Below are positions 4,391 to 26,801 of a stretch of DNA of 64,000 nucleotides, piece after piece. The position numbers and the translations under genes were made by a program. Each line of letters starts with the position of its first letter. Within the stretch, counting starts at the first letter, position 1. Below the pieces are notes generated by a model. The model saw nothing but the letters and a program-made list of their open reading frames with translations, did not search any database and had not been told where the DNA came from. This DNA comes from Alphaproteobacteria bacterium (GTDB lineage Bacteria; Pseudomonadota; Alphaproteobacteria; UBA828): positions 32,001 to 96,000 of the forward strand of contig CBDCRW010000006.1 in NCBI GenBank assembly GCA_965221125.1, given 5' to 3'.

Positions 4391-5512
4391 ATGACCGTTC
4401 CCCAGGAAGACGCCCTCGCGATCGACGCCGGGCGGCTGAGAGAGGCTGTCGCCGCAATCTTCACGACCGCCGGCTGCGCGGAGGAGGAAGGCGCGCGCAT
4501 CGCCCGCTACCTGGTGGAATCCAACCTCACCGGGCACGACAGCCACGGCGTCATCCGCGTACCCCGCTACGTGTACTGGCTCGACGCCGGCACCGTGCGC
4601 GCAGGCCGGCACGTCAAGACGGTGATGGACGCAGGCGCGGTCGCCGTGCTCGACGGCGACCACGGCTTCGGCCAGACCATCGGCGAGGAGGCGATCACCC
4701 TCGCGGCGGAGAAGGCGCGCGAATACGGCGTCTCCGTGGTCGGCCTGCGCAACTCTGGCCACCTGGGGCGGATCGGCGACTGGGCCGAGCTCGCGGCGGC
4801 GGAGGGCCTGATCTCCATCCACTTCGTCAACACCAGCGGGCTCGGCATGATCGTGGCGCCCTTCGGTGGCACCGAGCGGCGCATGTCCACCAACCCCATC
4901 AGCATCGGCGTGCCGATGCCGGACGGCCCGCCGCTGGTGCTCGACTGCGCGACGTCGGTCGTGGCCGAGGGCAAGGTGCTGGTCGCGCTCAACGGCGGCA
5001 AGCCGCTGCCCGACGGCGCCCTGATCGAGCGGGACGGCACGCTCACCACCGATCCCAATGCCCTCTACGGCGAGGTGGACGGCACCCAGCCCCACGACCA
5101 GCGCACCGGCGCGGCCGCCGTGCGCGCGATGGGGGAGCACAAGGGCTCCGGCATCAGCTTCATGTGCGAGCTGCTCGCGGGCGCGCTCACCGGCGGCGGC
5201 TGCGGCAAGGCGGGCCACAAGACGCTGGAGAACAATATGCTGTCCATCCTGCTCGACCCGGCGCGCTTCGGGACCGAGACGGTGCTCTGGCCGGAGATCG
5301 ACCGCTACATCGAATTCGTGCGCAGCGCGCGTTCGGCGCCGGGGCATGACCAGGTGCGCCTCCCCGGCGAGCCCGAAGAGGAGATGCGCGCCGAGCGGCG
5401 TGCGCACGGCGTCCCCCTGCCGCGGAAGGTGCGGGCGAGCCTCGCGCTCACGGCGAACTCCCTCGGCCTGGCGGAGGTGGCCGCCGTGTTCGAGCCCGAG
5501 GCGCGCGCGTAG
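4391..5512 (+). CDS. Ldh_2 family (malate/lactate/ureidoglycolate-type) dehydrogenase
   Basis: GHDSHG, DGDHGFGQ, HLGRIG, STNPI, HKGSG, LPGEPE. Confidence 0.85.
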   Translation: MTVPQEDALAIDAGRLREAVAAIFTTAGCAEEEGARIARYLVESNLTGHDSHGVIRVPRYVYWLDAGTVRAGRHVKTVMDAGAVAVLDGDHGFGQTIGEEAITLAAEKAREYGVSVVGLRNSGHLGRIGDWAELAAAEGLISIHFVNTSGLGMIVAPFGGTERRMSTNPISIGVPMPDGPPLVLDCATSVVAEGKVLVALNGGKPLPDGALIERDGTLTTDPNALYGEVDGTQPHDQRTGAAAVRAMGEHKGSGISFMCELLAGALTGGGCGKAGHKTLENNMLSILLDPARFGTETVLWPEIDRYIEFVRSARSAPGHDQVRLPGEPEEEMRAERRAHGVPLPRKVRASLALTANSLGLAEVAAVFEPEARA

Positions 5513-19017: not shown

Positions 19018-21107
19018 CAGGAACATTTTTTAGTCATGGCTGAGAGGGCGGGATGACCGAGAGCGGGCAGGCTTGGGCCGATGAAGGTCCTGGCCGAGCT
19101 TGGCTGGGCGGCTGCATGGGGTCCGCGGGGGCCGGTAGGGCTCGGTTTTCGGGCTCGCCGGGCAAAGCGATCCCGCCGCGCCGTTCGACGGCGCGTCCCG
19201 TCGCGCTCTGCGACGCGGTTACGCCCGCAGGATCATGCAGCGGGCGCGATCAGGATCGCGTCGAGAGCCTCCTGGGCGCGGGCGGCATAATGCCGGTTGG
19301 CCTCGGGCAGGAAGCGGAAGCGCCCGTCGCAGCGCACGATGGCGATGGCCGCGTTGGTCAGGCAGGAGAGATTGCGCGGCAGGTGGCGCACGTACGCCCG
19401 GCAGCGGTCTTCGTCATAGGTGAAGTCGCGCACGTAGTGCAGCCGGTTCTCGATGTGCCAGTGATTGCGGACCAGAGCCAGAAGCTCCTCGGGCCCGGCG
19501 CGGTCTGCGCCGAGCGAGGTCAGGCTCCAGGTCACCTCGACGCTGCGCTCGCCGGTCTTGAGGATCTCGCGCTCGCGTTCGATGCGCATCGCCTGGCGGC
19601 GTCCGTGAAGGTTGGCGTAGCCGTCCCATTCGGCAGCGGAGAGGTCGACGACGGCGCAGCGGCGGCGCTCGATGCGGCCATGGCCCTTGTCGACGGTTTC
19701 GTGCCAGGGCGCGTCGGAGAAGTCGATCGCCTTGAGGTCTTCGAGGATGGTCTCCTGATTGTCCTTCACCGCGGTGACCACGTAGTCGGCGCGACGCCCG
19801 AGCAGGCAGCGCGCGGTCTCGTGCTGGGCGTGCATCGCATCGAGGGTGACGGTCCGGCCTGCGAGGTCGAGACTGCTGGAGAGTTCGCGCACGGCGGGGA
19901 TCTCGTTGCTCTTTCTATCGACCTCGACCTGTCCCAGGACCATGCCGGTCTTGTGCACCAGCGCCGCGACCATCATGCGCCGCCCGTCTTCGGTCTGCTT
20001 CGAGGCGCCGCGCAGGTCCTTTCCGTCCATGGCGACCGGGGCGTGCGCGCCGTCGTGCTGGCCGGTCCACCGGCCGATGGCGTTGTCCAGCGTCTCCGGC
20101 GGCAGGGCGGCGAGGATGTTGTGGAAGGTGGTGATCGCGGGCGCGGTGTAGCGCTTCTTCGAAGGGCTCCAGAACGCGCCGACCGCCTCGAGCTGCTCCT
20201 GCGAGAGCAGGGCGGCGAACTGGGCGAAGGCTGTCGAGCCCCGGTAGCCGGCAAGGCGGGCGGCGACGGCAACCGCCAGCACGGTCTTCAAGGGATAGCG
20301 CTTGCCCCGGGCATGGCGGCACTCGGGCACCTCGCCCAGGCACTCGAACAGGCTGCGCAGCCGGGGCGCCGTCATCGGCTCGCTGTGTTGCTCGGCGTTC
20401 CAGTTCGCCGGGATCTCGGCCCGGCTCAGCGCTTCGGCGGCGCCATCGCTAAGTTCGAACACGAAGACCTCCTTGGGCTGGCCGTGGTGGCGCCAGCGCG
20501 GAGCAGCTCCGGGGTCACGGGCAAAGCCGCGCGTCATCCCCAGCGAGCGCCAGTTCGACGCGCGGTAGCAGGTGCCGGCGAAGCGCGCGGGATCGACGAA
20601 GGTCTCGGCCAGGAGCGCCGGGTATCCATGCACCGCCTGGGTGTCCGCAGACAGCCGCCGCAGGCTCAGCCCCAGAACCCGCGAGGCCAGGTTGGGAACC
20701 CGCTCAGGCGTCAGGATCACGAAGCGCGAGTTGTTCGCGATCAGATGCAGGCGCCGGAACTGCTGCTCCGCCGACCAGCCGATCCAGCGGTCGCGCGCGG
20801 CCAGCTTGAACGCGCCCGGCTGCCAGCCGATCAGGGCGAGCCAGGTCTCGCCATGCACCGCGACATGGCGCAGCCCCTTGCCGACGACGCCGTGGAATCG
20901 CAGGTAGTGGTGCTCCTCCACCAGCCGGTCCCAGCGCCGGTGCTCCCGCGCGCCCCAGGTCGGGCGCACCGTGACCGCACGCAGATCAATGGACGAATCC
21001 AGGCCCGGCAACGTCGCCATGGCCGCTACACTGCCACAGCGAAAACGAAATGACCAGCGCCGCGATCACCTCACGCCGCTCGCCGGGCGGACAAAAAACG
21101 AGCCCTG
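19018..21107 (-). mobile_element. ISAs1-family insertion sequence
   Basis: 10 bp duplication GTCTCCGAGG at 19008-19017 and 21108-21117; imperfect CAGG..TTTTTT terminal inverted repeats. Confidence 0.88.
19233..21020 (-). CDS. ISAs1 transposase with N-terminal DUF4338 (DruA-like) domain
   Basis: C-terminal DGKDLRG, KSNEIPA, TLDAMHAQ, HGRIERR, HWHIENRLHYVRD; N-terminal HHYL, RDRWIGW, NNSRF, NLASRVL, ETFVD, GTCYRASNW. Confidence 0.88.
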   Translation of the reverse strand: MATLPGLDSSIDLRAVTVRPTWGAREHRRWDRLVEEHHYLRFHGVVGKGLRHVAVHGETWLALIGWQPGAFKLAARDRWIGWSAEQQFRRLHLIANNSRFVILTPERVPNLASRVLGLSLRRLSADTQAVHGYPALLAETFVDPARFAGTCYRASNWRSLGMTRGFARDPGAAPRWRHHGQPKEVFVFELSDGAAEALSRAEIPANWNAEQHSEPMTAPRLRSLFECLGEVPECRHARGKRYPLKTVLAVAVAARLAGYRGSTAFAQFAALLSQEQLEAVGAFWSPSKKRYTAPAITTFHNILAALPPETLDNAIGRWTGQHDGAHAPVAMDGKDLRGASKQTEDGRRMMVAALVHKTGMVLGQVEVDRKSNEIPAVRELSSSLDLAGRTVTLDAMHAQHETARCLLGRRADYVVTAVKDNQETILEDLKAIDFSDAPWHETVDKGHGRIERRRCAVVDLSAAEWDGYANLHGRRQAMRIEREREILKTGERSVEVTWSLTSLGADRAGPEELLALVRNHWHIENRLHYVRDFTYDEDRCRAYVRHLPRNLSCLTNAAIAIVRCDGRFRFLPEANRHYAARAQEALDAILIAPAA

Positions 21108-21155
21108 GTCTCCGAGGCTGTTGGTGCGAACCGAAGCAGCCTGAAGGAGGCCCCC

Positions 21156-21304
21156 ATGCAGGTCAGAAGCCTGCCCCGCCATGTTATCCGAAACGCGATG
21201 GTCGGGTCGCGCCTGATCGGCGCGGAGCCCCCCGACAGCGCAGCGGCGATCAGGCGCGATGCGCTTATGCGTTGGCAGCAGGCCCGAGCGCGGGGACTGA
21301 GTGC
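21156..21304 (+). pseudogene. 5' fragment of the interrupted IS481-like transposase
   Basis: AAGGAGG then ATG 21156; frame joins the 25926-26801 fragment across the AGTGC duplication. Confidence 0.8.
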
Positions 21305-21673
21305 TGTTGTTTTCCGGTCTAGCCGGATAGAAGCACGGGTTTTTTTCTCACTTTGATTGGTTGGTGGATTTCCCGGGATGGTGGCCGAGTGCGGGAAGGA
21401 CGCTGCCTGCGGCATTTTTTTGATCCTCAGCAGAATCCTCATTGCTGTTGAAGCTGTGGAGCGGTGGGCGCGAGATCGGCGAGTGTGGTCAGGCGGTGGG
21501 CAAGCGCCAGCTTGTCCACGGGCTGTCCACACGGTCCGCAGGACGCCGATCGGTCCGCAGGACGCGTCCACGGCTCCACAGCTTGGCGGCGGCGGGGAGC
21601 GTCCGTAATCTTGGCCTCTCACTGAACGACAAAGAGAGGCCCGGGGGACGGAACTCCCGCCGGGCCAGGGCCG

Positions 21674-22309
21674 GTGCAGCTTCGCTACGAAACGGGGCTC
21701 ACCAGCGAGGAATACGTTAAGACCGAGGCGTGGCGCGACGCAAGGCTTGAGCGCTGCCCGAATCACCCGCACGGCGGATGTTCTGTGGCAAGCCACGGCA
21801 CCTACGAGCGGAAGACCCCGCCCGGCGCAAGGGTTCCTCGCTGGTATTGCCGTGAGAGCCATACGACCATCGGCCTGCTGGCCGACTGTCTGGCGGCGCG
21901 GCTGCCGGGCACGCTCGATGCGCTGGAAGCGGTTGTTGTCGTGGCGGAGGAGGCCGGCAGCCTGGAGGAGGCAGCGGACGAGGTGCGCTGCCCCGAGGAC
22001 GAGGACGCCATCGAGCTTCCCGGCGCCGTGCGTTGGATCCGCCGCAGGCTGAAGCTTGTGCACGACGCGCTTGTGCGCGTCATCGGCCTGATCCCCGACC
22101 TGCTCGCGGGCTGCGCGCCCACCATGAGCGCGGTGCGCGAGCGTCTGAAGAGCGACAGCGCGTTGATGGAACTGCGCGGCCTGGTCGCCGGGCAGCTCCG
22201 GACGCTACCCGCGCCTCTGGGCTTCCAACCCCACGGCATCGACGTGGGGAATCGCAAACCGCAGTTCCAACAACGGGCGGGGCCGGACCCGCCGCCGGAG
22301 AGTTCGTAG
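21674..22309 (+). CDS. Transposon accessory protein with putative Zn-binding N-terminus
   Basis: CPNHPHGGC..HGTYERK..RWYCRESH; first gene of the element operon. Confidence 0.65.
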   Translation: MQLRYETGLTSEEYVKTEAWRDARLERCPNHPHGGCSVASHGTYERKTPPGARVPRWYCRESHTTIGLLADCLAARLPGTLDALEAVVVVAEEAGSLEEAADEVRCPEDEDAIELPGAVRWIRRRLKLVHDALVRVIGLIPDLLAGCAPTMSAVRERLKSDSALMELRGLVAGQLRTLPAPLGFQPHGIDVGNRKPQFQQRAGPDPPPESS

Positions 22310-22354
22310 CGTGACGATCCCGGGGCCAGGGAGTCCCTGAACGAGGATCGCACC

Positions 22355-23683
22355 ATGAACAGCTCAGACGACGACCTTCGCCAACAGATCGCGCTCTTCC
22401 GATACGACGTCATCGCCGATCTGGTGCATCTGCCCGTGGGTGCACCGGGTGCCGGCGCGATGATGCGCGCCAAAGCCGAGAAGACCTACACGATCCCCGG
22501 AACCACCAGGACCCGGGTCGCCGCCGAGACCATGCGGCGCTGGATCAAGGACTACCGCTACGGCGGCTTCGACGCGCTCTACCCCAAGCCCCGCACCGAC
22601 CGGGGGAAGCCCCGGCGGCTGCCGCCCGAGGTCGCCGAGCGCCTCATCGCGCTGAAGACCGAGAACGACGCATTGTCGGTTCGCGCCATCATCCAGAAGG
22701 TCAAGGAGGAGGGTATCGACCACCCGCTCGCCTCGTCCACCGTGCACCGCCTCTTCAGCCGCGAGGGCCTGTTCGACAAGAAGCCGCCCGACGGGGCGGA
22801 TCGCCGCCGCTTCGCCTTCCGGCATGCCGGCGAGATGTGGATGAGCGACGTCATGCACGGACCCAAGGTCCGGCACGGCCGAACCCGGCGCAAGACCTAC
22901 CTGATCGCCTTCATCGACGACGCCACCCGCGTCATCCCGTTCGCCGCCTTCGCCATGGCGGAGAACACTGCGGCGTTCCTGCCGGTGTTCAAGGACGCGC
23001 TGATCCGGCGCGGCCTCCCGGCCCGCTTGTACGTCGACAACGGAAGCGCCTACCGCTCCCGTCATCTCTCCCTGGTCTGCGCCAGGCTCGGCGTTGCGTT
23101 GATTCACGCAAGGGCGTTCCAGCCAGCGGGAAAGGGTAAGATCGAGCGCTTCTTCCGCACCCTCCGGGCCGGCTGGCTCCGCCACCTCGGCGATGACGTC
23201 GACAGCCTGGAGGCGCTCAACCGCAGCCTCTGGGCCTGGATCGAGGGGGAGTATCACAACAGCCCGCATCGTGGCCTCGACGAGGGGCGCACCCCGCTTG
23301 AGCAGTGGGCGCTGGCCTCGGCCGGCGTGCGCTATCCCGACGCCACCATGGACCTCGACGATCTGTTCCTCTTCGAGGCCAGGCGCCGTGTCTACAAGGA
23401 CCGCACCGTTAGTCTGAACGGCCGCGTCTACGAGGTCGACGCCCTCCTGGTGGGTCAGAACGTCATCCTGCGCTACGACCCGGCCGCGCCGCCCTCGCGC
23501 CCTCTCGACGTGGTCCATGACGGCAAGCCGGCCGGCAAGGCCAGCCCTCTCGACGCCTACGCCAATACCGCCGTCAGGCGCACCTACCCGGCCAGGGAGA
23601 TCGAGGCCGAAGATCCGGCGCCCGAGCCTCCGCCCTCGCCGCTGGCCATGCGCAACCTCAAGGACAAGAAGGAGGACGAGTGA
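22355..23683 (+). CDS. DDE integrase/transposase (rve core, Mu-type C-terminus)
   Basis: HTH region, WMSDVMHG, FIDDATR, YVDNGSAY, GKIERFF, YHNSPHRGL. Confidence 0.92.
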   Translation: MNSSDDDLRQQIALFRYDVIADLVHLPVGAPGAGAMMRAKAEKTYTIPGTTRTRVAAETMRRWIKDYRYGGFDALYPKPRTDRGKPRRLPPEVAERLIALKTENDALSVRAIIQKVKEEGIDHPLASSTVHRLFSREGLFDKKPPDGADRRRFAFRHAGEMWMSDVMHGPKVRHGRTRRKTYLIAFIDDATRVIPFAAFAMAENTAAFLPVFKDALIRRGLPARLYVDNGSAYRSRHLSLVCARLGVALIHARAFQPAGKGKIERFFRTLRAGWLRHLGDDVDSLEALNRSLWAWIEGEYHNSPHRGLDEGRTPLEQWALASAGVRYPDATMDLDDLFLFEARRRVYKDRTVSLNGRVYEVDALLVGQNVILRYDPAAPPSRPLDVVHDGKPAGKASPLDAYANTAVRRTYPAREIEAEDPAPEPPPSPLAMRNLKDKKEDE

Positions 23684-24483
23684 TGTACCTGCGCCACTTC
23701 GCCTTCACCCGCCTGCCCTTCGAGACCCCGGCAGAGACCGACGAGCTGTTCGAGTCCAACGCGCGCCGCGAGGCCGAGGCCAGGCTCGGCCACCTCATCG
23801 ACCTGCGCGGCATCGGCCTGCTCACCGGCGAGGTGGGCTCCGGCAAGACCACCGTGTGCCGGCATCTGACCGCGCAGCTTCATCCAGGCCTCTACCGGGT
23901 CCACTACGTCTCGCTGACCACGGGCAACGTGCTCGACATGTACAAGGCGATCGCGTGGGAGATCGGCCTGCCCATCGAGCGCTCCCGCGCCTCGGCCTAT
24001 CAGGCCATCCGAAACGAGATCTCCCGCCTCGTCACCGAGGCCAAGCAGCTGCCGGTCCTCGTCATCGACGAGGCCCATCATCTGCGCAACGACGTCCTTG
24101 AGGACCTGCGCCTGCTCACCAACTTCGCCATGGATGCAGAGCAGCGCCTGTGCCTCGTCCTCGTCGGTCTGACCGAGCTCAGGCGCCGCCTGGCCATGGC
24201 CATGCACGAATCCCTCAGCCAGCGCCTCGTCGTCCGCCACCACCTGAGCGGTCTCGACCGCGACGAGGTCGACGCTTACATCAAGCACCGCCTCAGGCTC
24301 GCGGGATGCGAACTGCCGCTGTTCGAAGAGCCCGCCGTCGAGGCCCTGTTCCAGGGCGCGCGCGGCCTGCCGCGCCAGATCAACCGCATCGCCCACTACG
24401 CGCTCTCCGCCGCCGCTCTCGACGAGGCGAGGACCGTCAGTGCCGACCACCTGCAGCACGCGCTCGAGGAACTGCGGCCATGA
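23680..24483 (+). CDS. ExeA-like AAA+ transposition helper ATPase
   Basis: Walker A GEVGSGKT, Walker B VIDEAH, GLPRQIN; overlaps transposase stop. Confidence 0.9.
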   Translation: MMYLRHFAFTRLPFETPAETDELFESNARREAEARLGHLIDLRGIGLLTGEVGSGKTTVCRHLTAQLHPGLYRVHYVSLTTGNVLDMYKAIAWEIGLPIERSRASAYQAIRNEISRLVTEAKQLPVLVIDEAHHLRNDVLEDLRLLTNFAMDAEQRLCLVLVGLTELRRRLAMAMHESLSQRLVVRHHLSGLDRDEVDAYIKHRLRLAGCELPLFEEPAVEALFQGARGLPRQINRIAHYALSAAALDEARTVSADHLQHALEELRP

Positions 24484-25520
24484 CCGGCTTCCCGACCCGC
24501 GCCCCGATCGAGCTGGAGGAGCGGCCGCGCGAGCAGCAATGGCTGGTGGACACGCTATGGGGCGAGCAGGCCGTCGGCATCGTCGGCGGCGAGCCGAAGT
24601 GCGGCAAGTCCATCCTGGCGCTGGACCTCGCGGTCGCAGTCGCCGCCGGCGTCCCATGCCTGCGGCACTTCGCCCCGGCCCGGCCTGGCCCGGTCCTGCT
24701 GTTCGCCGCAGAAGACGCCGGCCACCTCGTGCGCAAGCGCCTGCAGGGGATCGCCCGCGCCGCAGGCGCCCGCTTCGAGACCCTCGACATCGCCGTCATC
24801 GACGTGCCCACACTGCGCCTCGACCATCTCGACGACCGCCGCCGCCTGCAGCAGACCGTGGAGCGCATCGCACCGCGCCTCGTGGTCCTCGACCCCCTGG
24901 TCCGCCTGCACGGCGTGGACGAGAACACGGTTGCGGACGTCGCCCCGATCCTCGGCTTCCTGCGCGACCTGCAACGCCGCTTCGAGACCGCCGTCCTCCT
25001 CGTCCACCACGCCCGCAAGAGCGGGGCCACGAGGCCGGGGCAGGCCCTGCGGGGCAGCAGTGAGCTGCACGCCTGGGGGGACTCGAACCTCTACCTGCGC
25101 CGCCGGGACCGGCAGACCCTCATGACCGTCGAGCATCGCGCCGCACGCGGTCTCGACGACATCGAGATCGAGCTCAAGGAAGACGGAGAGGAGCCCTCCT
25201 TCCGGCTGCGCCAGCCGCCCACGGCCGGCGGCGGGGCGCCTCAGCCCGAAACACCCGAATGCCGCGTTCTCAAGGCGCTCGCCGACGCCGGGGCGCCGCT
25301 CTCGCAACGCCAGATCCGGGAACGCGCCGCGACCCGGCACAAGACCGTCGGCGTAATCTTGCAAAAGCTCGTCCAGGAGGGTCGCGTCGCGCGCAACGCC
25401 GAGGGCGGCTACAGCGTCGTCGCAGGCGCAGCGGACAAGCGGGCGGCGGCCGCCGCCGCCAACGGCAGCAGTCGGCCGCAGGCCCCGCGGTTCCCGGAGC
25501 CCGGTTCCGCCAACGCCTAG
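24480..25520 (+). CDS. RecA-fold AAA_25 (RepA helicase-like) ATPase with C-terminal HTH-like region
   Basis: GGEPKCGKS, FAAED, LVVLDPL, LVHHARK, LRGSS; ATGA overlap with ExeA gene. Confidence 0.82.
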   Translation: MTGFPTRAPIELEERPREQQWLVDTLWGEQAVGIVGGEPKCGKSILALDLAVAVAAGVPCLRHFAPARPGPVLLFAAEDAGHLVRKRLQGIARAAGARFETLDIAVIDVPTLRLDHLDDRRRLQQTVERIAPRLVVLDPLVRLHGVDENTVADVAPILGFLRDLQRRFETAVLLVHHARKSGATRPGQALRGSSELHAWGDSNLYLRRRDRQTLMTVEHRAARGLDDIEIELKEDGEEPSFRLRQPPTAGGGAPQPETPECRVLKALADAGAPLSQRQIRERAATRHKTVGVILQKLVQEGRVARNAEGGYSVVAGAADKRAAAAAANGSSRPQAPRFPEPGSANA

Positions 25521-25925
25521 GGGTTCGAGCCGGAACCGCCGTCGGGAACCACCCTTCCCCAACGGTCCGGAAGGCGCTGCGCCTCCACCGGGATACTACG
25601 TCAGGTGAGCGGCCAGTCCGTGGCCGGAAGCTTGCTTCAGGCCATGGCAGCACTTCGTCGTGTGGACGGTGGCGAGTCACCCGAAGGGCCGAAGCGAAGC
25701 GCAGGAGCGGCGCAGCCGCTTGACGCGCCGACGGCCGCGCGACACCTCGTCAGCTCTCCTCAAGCACCAGTCCAAACCTCAATCAGACAGCGACCCCGGA
25801 CCGCCCGCAGAGACCATGAGCTCCTACGCTTCGATCCGGAAAAGACCGAGCAATCTGGGAAATCAGGGCAGCGATCACGTCAAATAATCTGGGAGATTCG
25901 GCGTCAAATAACGTGCGAAACAACA

Positions 25926-26801
25926 AGTGCCGCCGATGCCGCAGAGGCGGTCGGCGTGCCGCGCGCCACCCTCTATCGCTGGGCGAAGCGCCCGGAGCCC
26001 GGCTCGCGCCGGCCCCACCGGCTGCGCCGGCCGACCTGGTCGCCGGCGCTGGTGGAGGCGGTCGAGGCCATGCGCCGCGACTATCCGATGTGGGGCAAGG
26101 CCAAGCTGGTCGTCCTGTTGCGCCGCGAGGGCTGGGTCGTCTCGGAGAGCACCGTAGGCCGCATCCTGGCGATGCTGGTCGCCCGAGGCCGGGTCGTGCC
26201 CGTGCCCACCCTGCGCCGCCGCCGCCATGGCGTCCGCCGCAAGCGGCCCCACGCCAGGCGCCTGCCCAAGGGCCTGAGGCCGAGCCGGCCCGGCGAGATC
26301 GTCCAGCTCGACACGCTCAGCGTCTCTCTCGGCGCAGAGCGGCGCACACTCAAGCAGTTCACCGCCTGCGATCCGCTCGCCAAGTGGACCTGCGCCCAAG
26401 CCTTCCGACGCGCCAGCGCGCACAACGCCAAGAACTTCCTCGACAAGCTCCAGGCCGACATGCCCTTCCCCATCCAGGCCATCCAGGTCGATGGCGGATC
26501 GGAGTTCAAGGCCGACTTCGAGGCCGAATGCGCGCGGCGCGGCATCGCCCTCTACGAGCTGCCGCCCCGCACGCCCGAACTCAACGGCCATGTCGAGCGC
26601 AACAACGGCGCCTGGCGCTACGAGTTCTACGCTACCTGGGAGCTGCCCAGCGACAGCCTCAAGGACATCAACCGATGGATCGACGCCTTCGCCGACGAGT
26701 TCAACAGCTTCAGGCCACACCACGCCCTTGGCGGACAAACACCAGCCGAATACCTTGCTCAGATCACAGCCAACGAAACCCAGCCGTCTCATAAGCCCTG
26801 A
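25926..26801 (+). pseudogene. 3' fragment of interrupted IS481-like transposase (integrase core)
   Basis: VGVPRATLYRW, VQLDT, IQVDGGSEF, NGHVER, RPHHALGGQTP. Confidence 0.85.

Follow-up and report, generated by a model that had tools for sequence, protein, structure and literature searches.

An active, compact transposon of the Tn6049 superfamily with an optional, exchangeable fourth gene that may serve as a replication accessory

The DNA analyzed here (the window) is a stretch of 64,000 nucleotides from an alphaproteobacterium of the UBA828 lineage (assembly GCA_965221125.1, contig CBDCRW010000006.1, positions 32,001 to 96,000), and it contains a mobile element at 21305-25925 on the forward strand. 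This element, a compact and active DDE transposon, belongs to the Tn6049 superfamily and has a conserved three-gene core, formed by orf1, the transposase gene tnpA and a gene for an AAA+ ATPase of the AAA_22 type. Tn6049 was reportedly first described by Van Houdt and colleagues in 2009, and the family that shares its core is catalogued yet uncharacterized. Behind the core lies a fourth gene, for a RecA-fold ATPase of the AAA_25 type, that is more than random cargo but not part of the universal core. Judged from sequence comparisons, this gene may be an optional, exchangeable replication accessory that aids the replication step of transposition, a tentative reading to which we give a little less than an even chance.

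The transposon measures 4621 bp and is bounded by terminal TGTTGTTT on the left (21305-21312) and terminal AAACAACA on the right (25918-25925), which are ends of the TGT..ACA type. A 5-bp target-site duplication, AGTGC, flanks it at 21300-21304 and 25926-25930. The genome from which the window was taken (4.58 Mb in 7 contigs, 69% G+C) holds 17 copies that run from base 1 to base 4621 with exact ends, and three more with the same ends that are each split by the same 1453-bp insertion sequence (IS) resembling IS256. All copies are 100% identical, which may reflect polishing of the assembly to a consensus, but their 20 distinct flanks are independent of polishing. These flanks mark 20 different sites with a weak CCNGG preference, and a perfect 5-bp duplication surrounds 15 of the 20 copies. 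In two others the duplication is 4 bp long, and in one the flanks agree at 4 of 5 positions; the last two are an inverted pair 45 kb apart on one contig (C4:671960-676580, minus strand, and C4:716887-721507, plus strand) with the reciprocal flanks CGGGG and CCCTC. The swapped flanks show that the 40-kb segment between these two copies was inverted. They are compatible with replicative inversion and with later recombination and do not decide between the two.

The target before insertion could be reconstructed. When the flanks are rejoined with a single AGTGC, they align without interruption to four intact copies of an IS481-like IS, at 100% in three places on contig C7 and at 99.8% in one place on contig C6. 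The transposon thus sits inside target DNA whose left part (21107-21304, forward strand) matches the intact IS from position 103 of the reconstruction on, and whose right part (25926-26801, forward strand) carries the remainder of the split IS481-like transposase gene (NCBIfam IS481, 6.8e-51), a gene of which intact copies exist in the genome. The empty site was also seen directly: in sequencing run X1, a contig joins 21299 to 25926 and omits 4626 bases, that is, 4621 plus 5. From the copies, their duplications, the empty site and the X1 joint, it follows that the bounds are exact and that movement was recent and frequent. The preliminary description had proposed the TGT..ACA ends and the AGTGC duplication, and both hold to the base.

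Four genes, all co-oriented on the forward strand, occupy the interior, and the last three are linked by overlapping stop and start codons, with GTGA (or TGATG) between tnpA and the AAA_22 gene and ATGA between the AAA_22 and AAA_25 genes. The transposase gene, tnpA (22355-23683, 442 amino acids), encodes the domains HTH_32, rve and Mu-transpos_C (Pfam); the best NCBIfam model for its product is IS481, at 201.9 bits and under the cut-off of 224, and the protein matches the transposase family phrog_310 (3.2e-49). The next gene (23680-24483, 267 amino acids), whose start overlaps the tnpA stop, encodes an ExeA/GspA-like and MuB/TniB-like AAA+ ATPase (Pfam AAA_22, 5.7e-27) that matches phrog_296, annotated as ‘DNA transposition protein’ (1.4e-29). 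The fourth gene (24480-25520), reached through the ATGA overlap with the AAA_22 stop, encodes a RecA-fold ATPase of 346 amino acids with a C-terminal winged helix (Pfam AAA_25, 1.7e-36). Domains of resolvases, TniQ, TnsA or Cas proteins found no Pfam match in any of the four proteins. In both respects, the four co-oriented genes with coupling of the last three and the lack of a resolvase, TniQ or Cas gene, the preliminary description was accurate.

The same core recurs widely. A scan with TnpA across one genome per species gave 447 confirmed relatives, and the best 79 loci, with TnpA identities from 98% down to 34%, were kept. Their hosts include Alpha- and Gammaproteobacteria, Spirochaetia, Bryobacterales, Verrucomicrobia, Desulfobacterota and Firmicutes. 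Down to a TnpA identity of about 46%, nearly every locus has orf1, tnpA and the AAA_22 gene together, as judged with phmmer. In the group at 34-43% identity, a zinc-finger open reading frame (ORF) is also present upstream of tnpA, and the core was recovered by profile comparison and by matches to DUF6431. Relatives with three genes measure 3.3-3.5 kb, begin with TGTTGTTTCCC, which is common to the left ends of the relatives, and finish with GGGAAACAACA; they are flanked by 5-bp duplications and occur in identical multiple copies in at least 5 genomes. In this family, mobility therefore requires no more than the three genes.

The first gene of the core, orf1 (21674-22309, forward strand), encodes 211 amino acids and has no direct Pfam match. 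Upon alignment of its homologues, a conserved set of cysteines and histidines emerges (C28, H31, C36, H41 and C59). A comparison by hhalign of the orf1 profile with the upstream zinc-finger ORFs of the 34-43% relatives gave a probability of 96.4% (E 1.1e-9), DUF6431 of Pfam is matched by 7 of 14 upstream ORFs in that group, and the neighbors of orf1 in a protein atlas carry DUF6431. The profile match, the DUF6431 relatives and the atlas neighbors together identify orf1 as a divergent DUF6431-type zinc ribbon in which histidine replaces some of the cysteines. Its AlphaFold2 model is well defined, with a predicted local distance difference test score (pLDDT) of 89.7; Foldseek returned no solved fold at E ≤ 0.001, and the best VIA-align score was Z 4.2, with weak helix-turn-helix (HTH)-like rows at residues 79-174. 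We therefore describe the protein as a zinc ribbon followed by a helical, weakly HTH-like domain. Across the relatives compared, this zinc-finger gene proved to be conserved and the AAA_25 gene optional.

A described family with this core exists. Tn6049 of Cupriavidus metallidurans CH34 is 3.5 kb long, is present in 12 copies and encodes a ‘gspA’ ATPase (PMC2864759); the copy on the Pseudomonas aeruginosa plasmid pHS87a has TGT-type inverted repeats and 4-bp direct repeats (PMC4739549). The annotation of Tn6049 lists a small ORF, a transposase of the ‘IS481 family’, an AAA ATPase whose gene overlaps it, and an ORF of 90 amino acids. Its TnpA is 25.8% identical to that of the window element over 92% of the length (E 4e-14). 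A relative on a Cupriavidus necator plasmid is nearer (39.6%), and its first ORF is annotated as DUF6431. A further link is a second lineage of AAA_25-bearing elements, called lineage B here, whose TnpA is 49% identical to Tn6049 TnpA and 25% to the window TnpA and whose orf1 is matched by the first ORF of Tn6049. The suggestion that the element fits no described family thus goes too far, since its three-gene core is the Tn6049 core. A mechanism for Tn6049 is not described in the literature searched, which included the accessible parts of PMC2864759 and PMC4739549.

The fourth position behaves differently from the core. Its state could be judged in 55 elements found with TnpA, and 25 more were too short to judge. 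AAA_25 is present in 7 of the 55 (5 genomes), a gene combining DUF3991 and Toprim_2 occupies the same slot in 14 (9 genomes), and the slot is empty in 34 (23 genomes). In these counts, L049 is placed with the Toprim forms and L111 with the AAA_25 forms. On the TnpA tree these states require at least 8 changes. Forms with the Toprim gene are basal and paraphyletic, and AAA_25 forms are concentrated in one well-supported clade of 17 rows. Within it, every row of the 10-row clade that contains the window element has AAA_25; the larger clade also holds three forms without it (L016, L018 and L032). One of them, L016, is the sister of an AAA_25 form, L105, so that a gain or loss separates close relatives. 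Similarity between the three-gene L016 and the window element ends at the AAA_22 stop and resumes over the last ~95 bp, and the AAA_25 gene therefore behaves as a cassette.

Searches with AAA_25 itself as the query retrieved 31 metagenome loci and a few genome loci. Wherever at least 900 bp of upstream sequence allowed a judgment, across all loci, the gene lies directly behind an AAA_22 gene and in the same orientation (33 of 33). Its hosts fall into three TnpA/AAA_22 lineages, namely lineage A with the window element, lineage B and a third. Between A and B, the AAA_25 proteins are ~70% identical, compared with 25% for TnpA and 27% for the AAA_22 ATPase. AAA_25 is thus far closer than the transposases, which argues that the module moved between lineages. 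The only other gene seen in the AAA_25 slot is the primase-like DUF3991-Toprim_2 gene, either alone or behind AAA_25: it follows the AAA_22 gene in 18 loci and AAA_25 in 4, the order AAA_25-Toprim being found in lineage B and in L123, a single fragment of A type. Two lineages of the superfamily can also lie side by side in one genome, as at L073 (5116-9497 and 10017-13310) and L034 (5077-8604 and 9212-12584); at L073, the AAA_25 genes of the two elements are 80% identical in DNA over 1264 bp and the transposases are distant.

Selection on the fourth gene resembles that on its neighbors. Its dN/dS ratios range from 0.18 to 0.39, those of tnpA from 0.22 to 0.29 and those of orf1 from 0.25 to 0.33; judged by these ratios, AAA_25 is under purifying selection like the core genes. 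All four genes are kept in 20 of 20 genomic copies. No tblastn match to the gene at E 1e-10 was found on 72,556 plasmids, and it is rare in reference genomes, with a match in 4 of 401 from the class and in 5 of 401 from the phylum, the element's own genome included. A large protein library holds 478 clusters of homologues at E ≤ 1e-30. The fixed place behind AAA_22 (33 of 33), the spread over at least three transposase lineages and the core-like purifying selection set AAA_25 apart from sporadic cargo; the preliminary description had said that a sporadic gene would refute its proposal.

The protein itself resembles a replicative helicase. Its profile matches the RSF1010 RepA helicase (1g8y) at E 3.2e-12, over a region that spans Walker A, the AED motif, Walker B, HHxxK and RGSS, and the Walker A lysine, catalytic glutamate, Walker B aspartate and arginine finger align with those of RepA. 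All 74 AAA_25 sequences compared, down to 34% identity, keep K43 (Walker A), E78, D138 (Walker B) and R191 unchanged. The resemblance to RSF1010 RepA that had been noted at the outset is thereby borne out. The matches of AAA_25 in PHROG fall on the helicase parts of phage primase/helicases. Toward the C-terminus, the winged helix gives a MarR_2 match (E 3.8e-5, below the Pfam cut-off) and matches to winged HTH domains of the MarR, GntR and IclR types. More distant relatives outside transposons include a 31%-identical one (L138) that sits behind a RepB_primase gene and another with the same build of AAA_25 plus winged HTH; in a further distant homologue (L095, 616-2400), AAA_25 is fused to an N-terminal DUF6371 domain in a protein of 595 amino acids. 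The Toprim partner keeps the Toprim glutamate and the DxD residues, and its sequence finds no match in the PDB. A predicted complex of AAA_25 with the Toprim protein of L115, a five-gene form that has both modules, scored 0.00 and was not used as evidence either way.

These features suggest how the fourth gene could act. By analogy with Mu, Tn552 and Tn5053, TnpA would cut only the 3' ends and join them to a target chosen with the AAA_22 ATPase. Mu, Tn552 and Tn5053 work without a TnsA-type second nuclease. In the absence of such a nuclease, strand transfer is expected, from these systems and from Tn7 without TnsA, to leave a forked intermediate that needs replication. AAA_25 would be a RepA-like ring ATPase or helicase with a DNA-binding winged helix, made together with AAA_22 through translational coupling, and it may open the DNA of the transposon fork, or of an intermediate that has been copied out, and thereby let replication begin while relying less on restart factors of the host. 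In sister elements, the primase-like DUF3991-Toprim protein would do a companion job, alone or with AAA_25. The module is predicted to raise the efficiency of transposition, whose chemistry would proceed without it. The accessory genes seen are solely helicase- or primase-like and are coupled to the AAA+ regulator, and a self-supplied replication aid is therefore the most economical reading. Of the earlier proposal that the coupled second ATPase is a dedicated subunit, the replication role survives as the best reading, and the idea of a fixed core subunit does not, given that 34 of 55 slots are empty and 14 of 55 hold the Toprim gene. A bolder version, which we regard as doubtful, is a minimal primosome: AAA_25, DUF3991-Toprim or both would be delivered by AAA_22 to the strand-transfer fork, would permit replication independent of host restart, and would pass as a cassette between transposase lineages of ~25% identity.

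Several observations weigh against a role in replication. Most judgeable relatives leave the slot empty, and several of these elements are multi-copy with target duplications; the module is dispensable, since elements without AAA_25 or Toprim transpose. The window element has no primase-like gene, and its genome contains no Toprim homologue of this type. A host without PriA was considered and rejected, because PriA is present at 624 bits, and there is thus no obvious gap in the host for AAA_25 to fill. Replicative transposition is itself inferred solely from the missing TnsA-type nuclease, in an element with no resolvase, and the joints listed among assembled contigs of the sequencing runs include no circle or cointegrate junction. 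Not every AAA_25 protein with a RecA fold is a helicase, and the AlphaFold2 model of this one is poor (pLDDT 60.9).

Other roles were weighed against the same evidence. The position directly after the AAA+ gene, with translational coupling, is where Tn7-like elements place TnsD, TniQ or TnsE, and AAA_25 could by analogy be a target selector or adaptor, an optional and exchangeable module like the selectors of Tn7, whose C-terminal winged helix would recognize a site or a structure in DNA, such as a fork or an incoming plasmid, and bring AAA_22 and the transposase there. We think this unlikely. The insertions show little selectivity, with 20 different sites and the weak CCNGG preference, and the 20 copies have no orientation bias relative to local GC skew (6 co-oriented at the 12 sites with clear skew). 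The conserved orf1, with its zinc ribbon and HTH-like domain, is the more TniQ-like candidate, and replication accounts better for both the Toprim partner and the conserved catalytic residues of RepA type. The matches to MarR, GntR and IclR proteins, the repeated motifs in both ends as putative binding sites and the dispensability of AAA_25 for transposition would also suit a regulator whose winged helix binds the transposon ends or a promoter and whose ATPase acts as a switch that sets copy number or target immunity. Such a role seems improbable to us: a RepA-like ATPase of 230 residues with invariant catalytic residues would be an unusual repressor, the recurrent Toprim partner would be left unexplained, and twenty copies argue against tight repression.

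The distribution of the gene speaks to two further explanations. AAA_25 could be a hitch-hiking passenger of use to the host or to a different mobile element, for example in defense or as a replication fragment of a plasmid or an integrative and conjugative element (ICE). Its absence from most relatives (34 of 55 lack any fourth gene), its gain or loss between L016 and L105 and the more distant homologues outside transposons are compatible with this, but a passenger would hardly be expected in the same slot and orientation, coupled to AAA_22, in 33 of 33 cases, nor as one of a set with no other kind of cargo, with core-like selection and no match on 72,556 plasmids; we consider it quite improbable. 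At the opposite extreme, AAA_25 could be an obligatory second ATPase subunit of the transposition machine on which one sublineage depends, as its integrity in 20 of 20 copies and its presence in every row of the window element's 10-row clade might imply. L016, L018 and L032, which lack it in the same 17-row clade, and the mobility of three-gene forms make this very improbable. An optional replication accessory remains our preferred reading.

The non-coding ends of the element carry the repeated motifs. In the left end (21305-21673, forward strand), a subterminal GATTTCCC lies at 21367-21374 and a direct repeat, CGGTCCGCAGGACGC, at 21532 and 21551. The right end (25521-25925, forward strand) has minus-strand repeats of TTATTTGACG (25878 and 25902) and TCCCAGATT (25852 and 25886), together with minus-strand GATTTCCC (25857). 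Rfam gave nothing at E ≤ 0.1 over 21000-26300; a search for sigma-70-like promoters found none, and terminator-like sites were no commoner than in shuffled sequence. The three IS256-like insertions that split transposon copies all hit these non-coding ends (element positions ~172-179, 4541 and 4564). The 1453-bp IS has 14 blastn matches in the genome, for example at C7:276233-277686, C5:758404-759856 and C6:194952-196404.

Near-identical copies of the element appear in sponge and marine metagenome contigs from 20 runs (X1-X20) of 8 studies, among the matches listed, and contigs in runs X5 and X7 begin exactly at the left end, base 21305. In X18, a sponge metatranscriptome, contigs lie mainly over the two ends (21305-21916 and 25730-25925) and include little of the genes; this coverage is not evidence of transcription and may stem from DNA carry-over. 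To the left of the target IS, a gene on the minus strand (19233-21020) encodes an ISAs1-family transposase of 595 amino acids whose N-terminal region matches the DruA domain of Druantia (Pfam E 1.7e-21). An adjoining stretch of ~104 bp (21005-21108) recurs at 11 other places in the genome at 99-100% identity and is probably the end of the ISAs1-like IS or a small repeat.

Elements that combine a DDE transposase and an AAA+ regulator, such as Mu, Tn7, Tn552 and IS21, are well known from textbooks and underlie the tools for CRISPR-guided insertion. To our knowledge, all of them leave replication or repair of the strand-transfer product to the host. That a compact and widespread relative repeatedly gains helicase- and primase-like genes, and those alone, suggests that replication can become the limiting step and that the element can provide for it itself. 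If true, this would open a way to study how transposition intermediates recruit replication, with a test system of four genes and 4.6 kb. The comparison also gives DUF6431 and one AAA_25 subfamily the context of a role, and it makes Tn6049 one tip of a family that spans many phyla. Helicase- or primase-like modules in Tn6049-, Tn552- or Mu-like transposons are not described in the literature searched, which included the accessible part of PMC10293859, covered few subscription journals and had ISfinder and TnCentral outside its scope.

Set beside known systems, the window element shares with Tn6049 the zinc-finger ORF, the IS481-like DDE transposase, the overlapping AAA_22 ATPase annotated as ‘GspA/ExeA-like’, the TGT ends and the many copies. 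By contrast, Tn6049 is 3.5 kb long, has a 90-amino-acid ORF where the 4621-bp window element has AAA_25, and carries the end sequence TGTGCATAAGCA. Tn552, Tn5053/Tn402, Mu and Tn7 likewise combine an rve transposase bearing a Mu-type C-terminal domain with one AAA+ helper, and they have TGT..CA ends and a 5-bp duplication; staphylococcal Tn552-type transposases match the window TnpA at 21-27% identity. Unlike these systems, the window element is without a resolvase, TniQ, TnsA or phage genes, and it has the upstream DUF6431 protein and the optional helicase- or primase-like gene. It falls outside Tn5053/Tn402, as the TniB model of Pfam reaches 20.8 bits against a cut-off of 22.4 and TniQ and a resolvase are missing, and outside the Tn7-like elements, as Pfam finds no TnsA or TniQ/TnsD match in its four proteins.

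As a short, IS-like element without cargo, it also recalls IS481, the best NCBIfam model for its transposase, and IS21, which likewise has a dedicated ATPase. IS481 elements are single-gene, and IstB is a DnaC-like AAA+ protein, not an AAA_22 protein. The window element differs from the former by its four genes and its score of 201.9 against 224 bits, and from the latter by 43.1 against 160 bits for the IS21 model and by an AAA_22 ATPase that has no IstB_IS21 match. With RSF1010 RepA and the helicase halves of T7 gp4-like and P4 alpha-like proteins, the likeness is limited to the AAA_25 protein, and no origin or initiator is evident in the element. Compared with the RepA helicases, AAA_25 bears a C-terminal winged helix, and its gene belongs to a DDE transposon and not to the replication module of a plasmid or phage.

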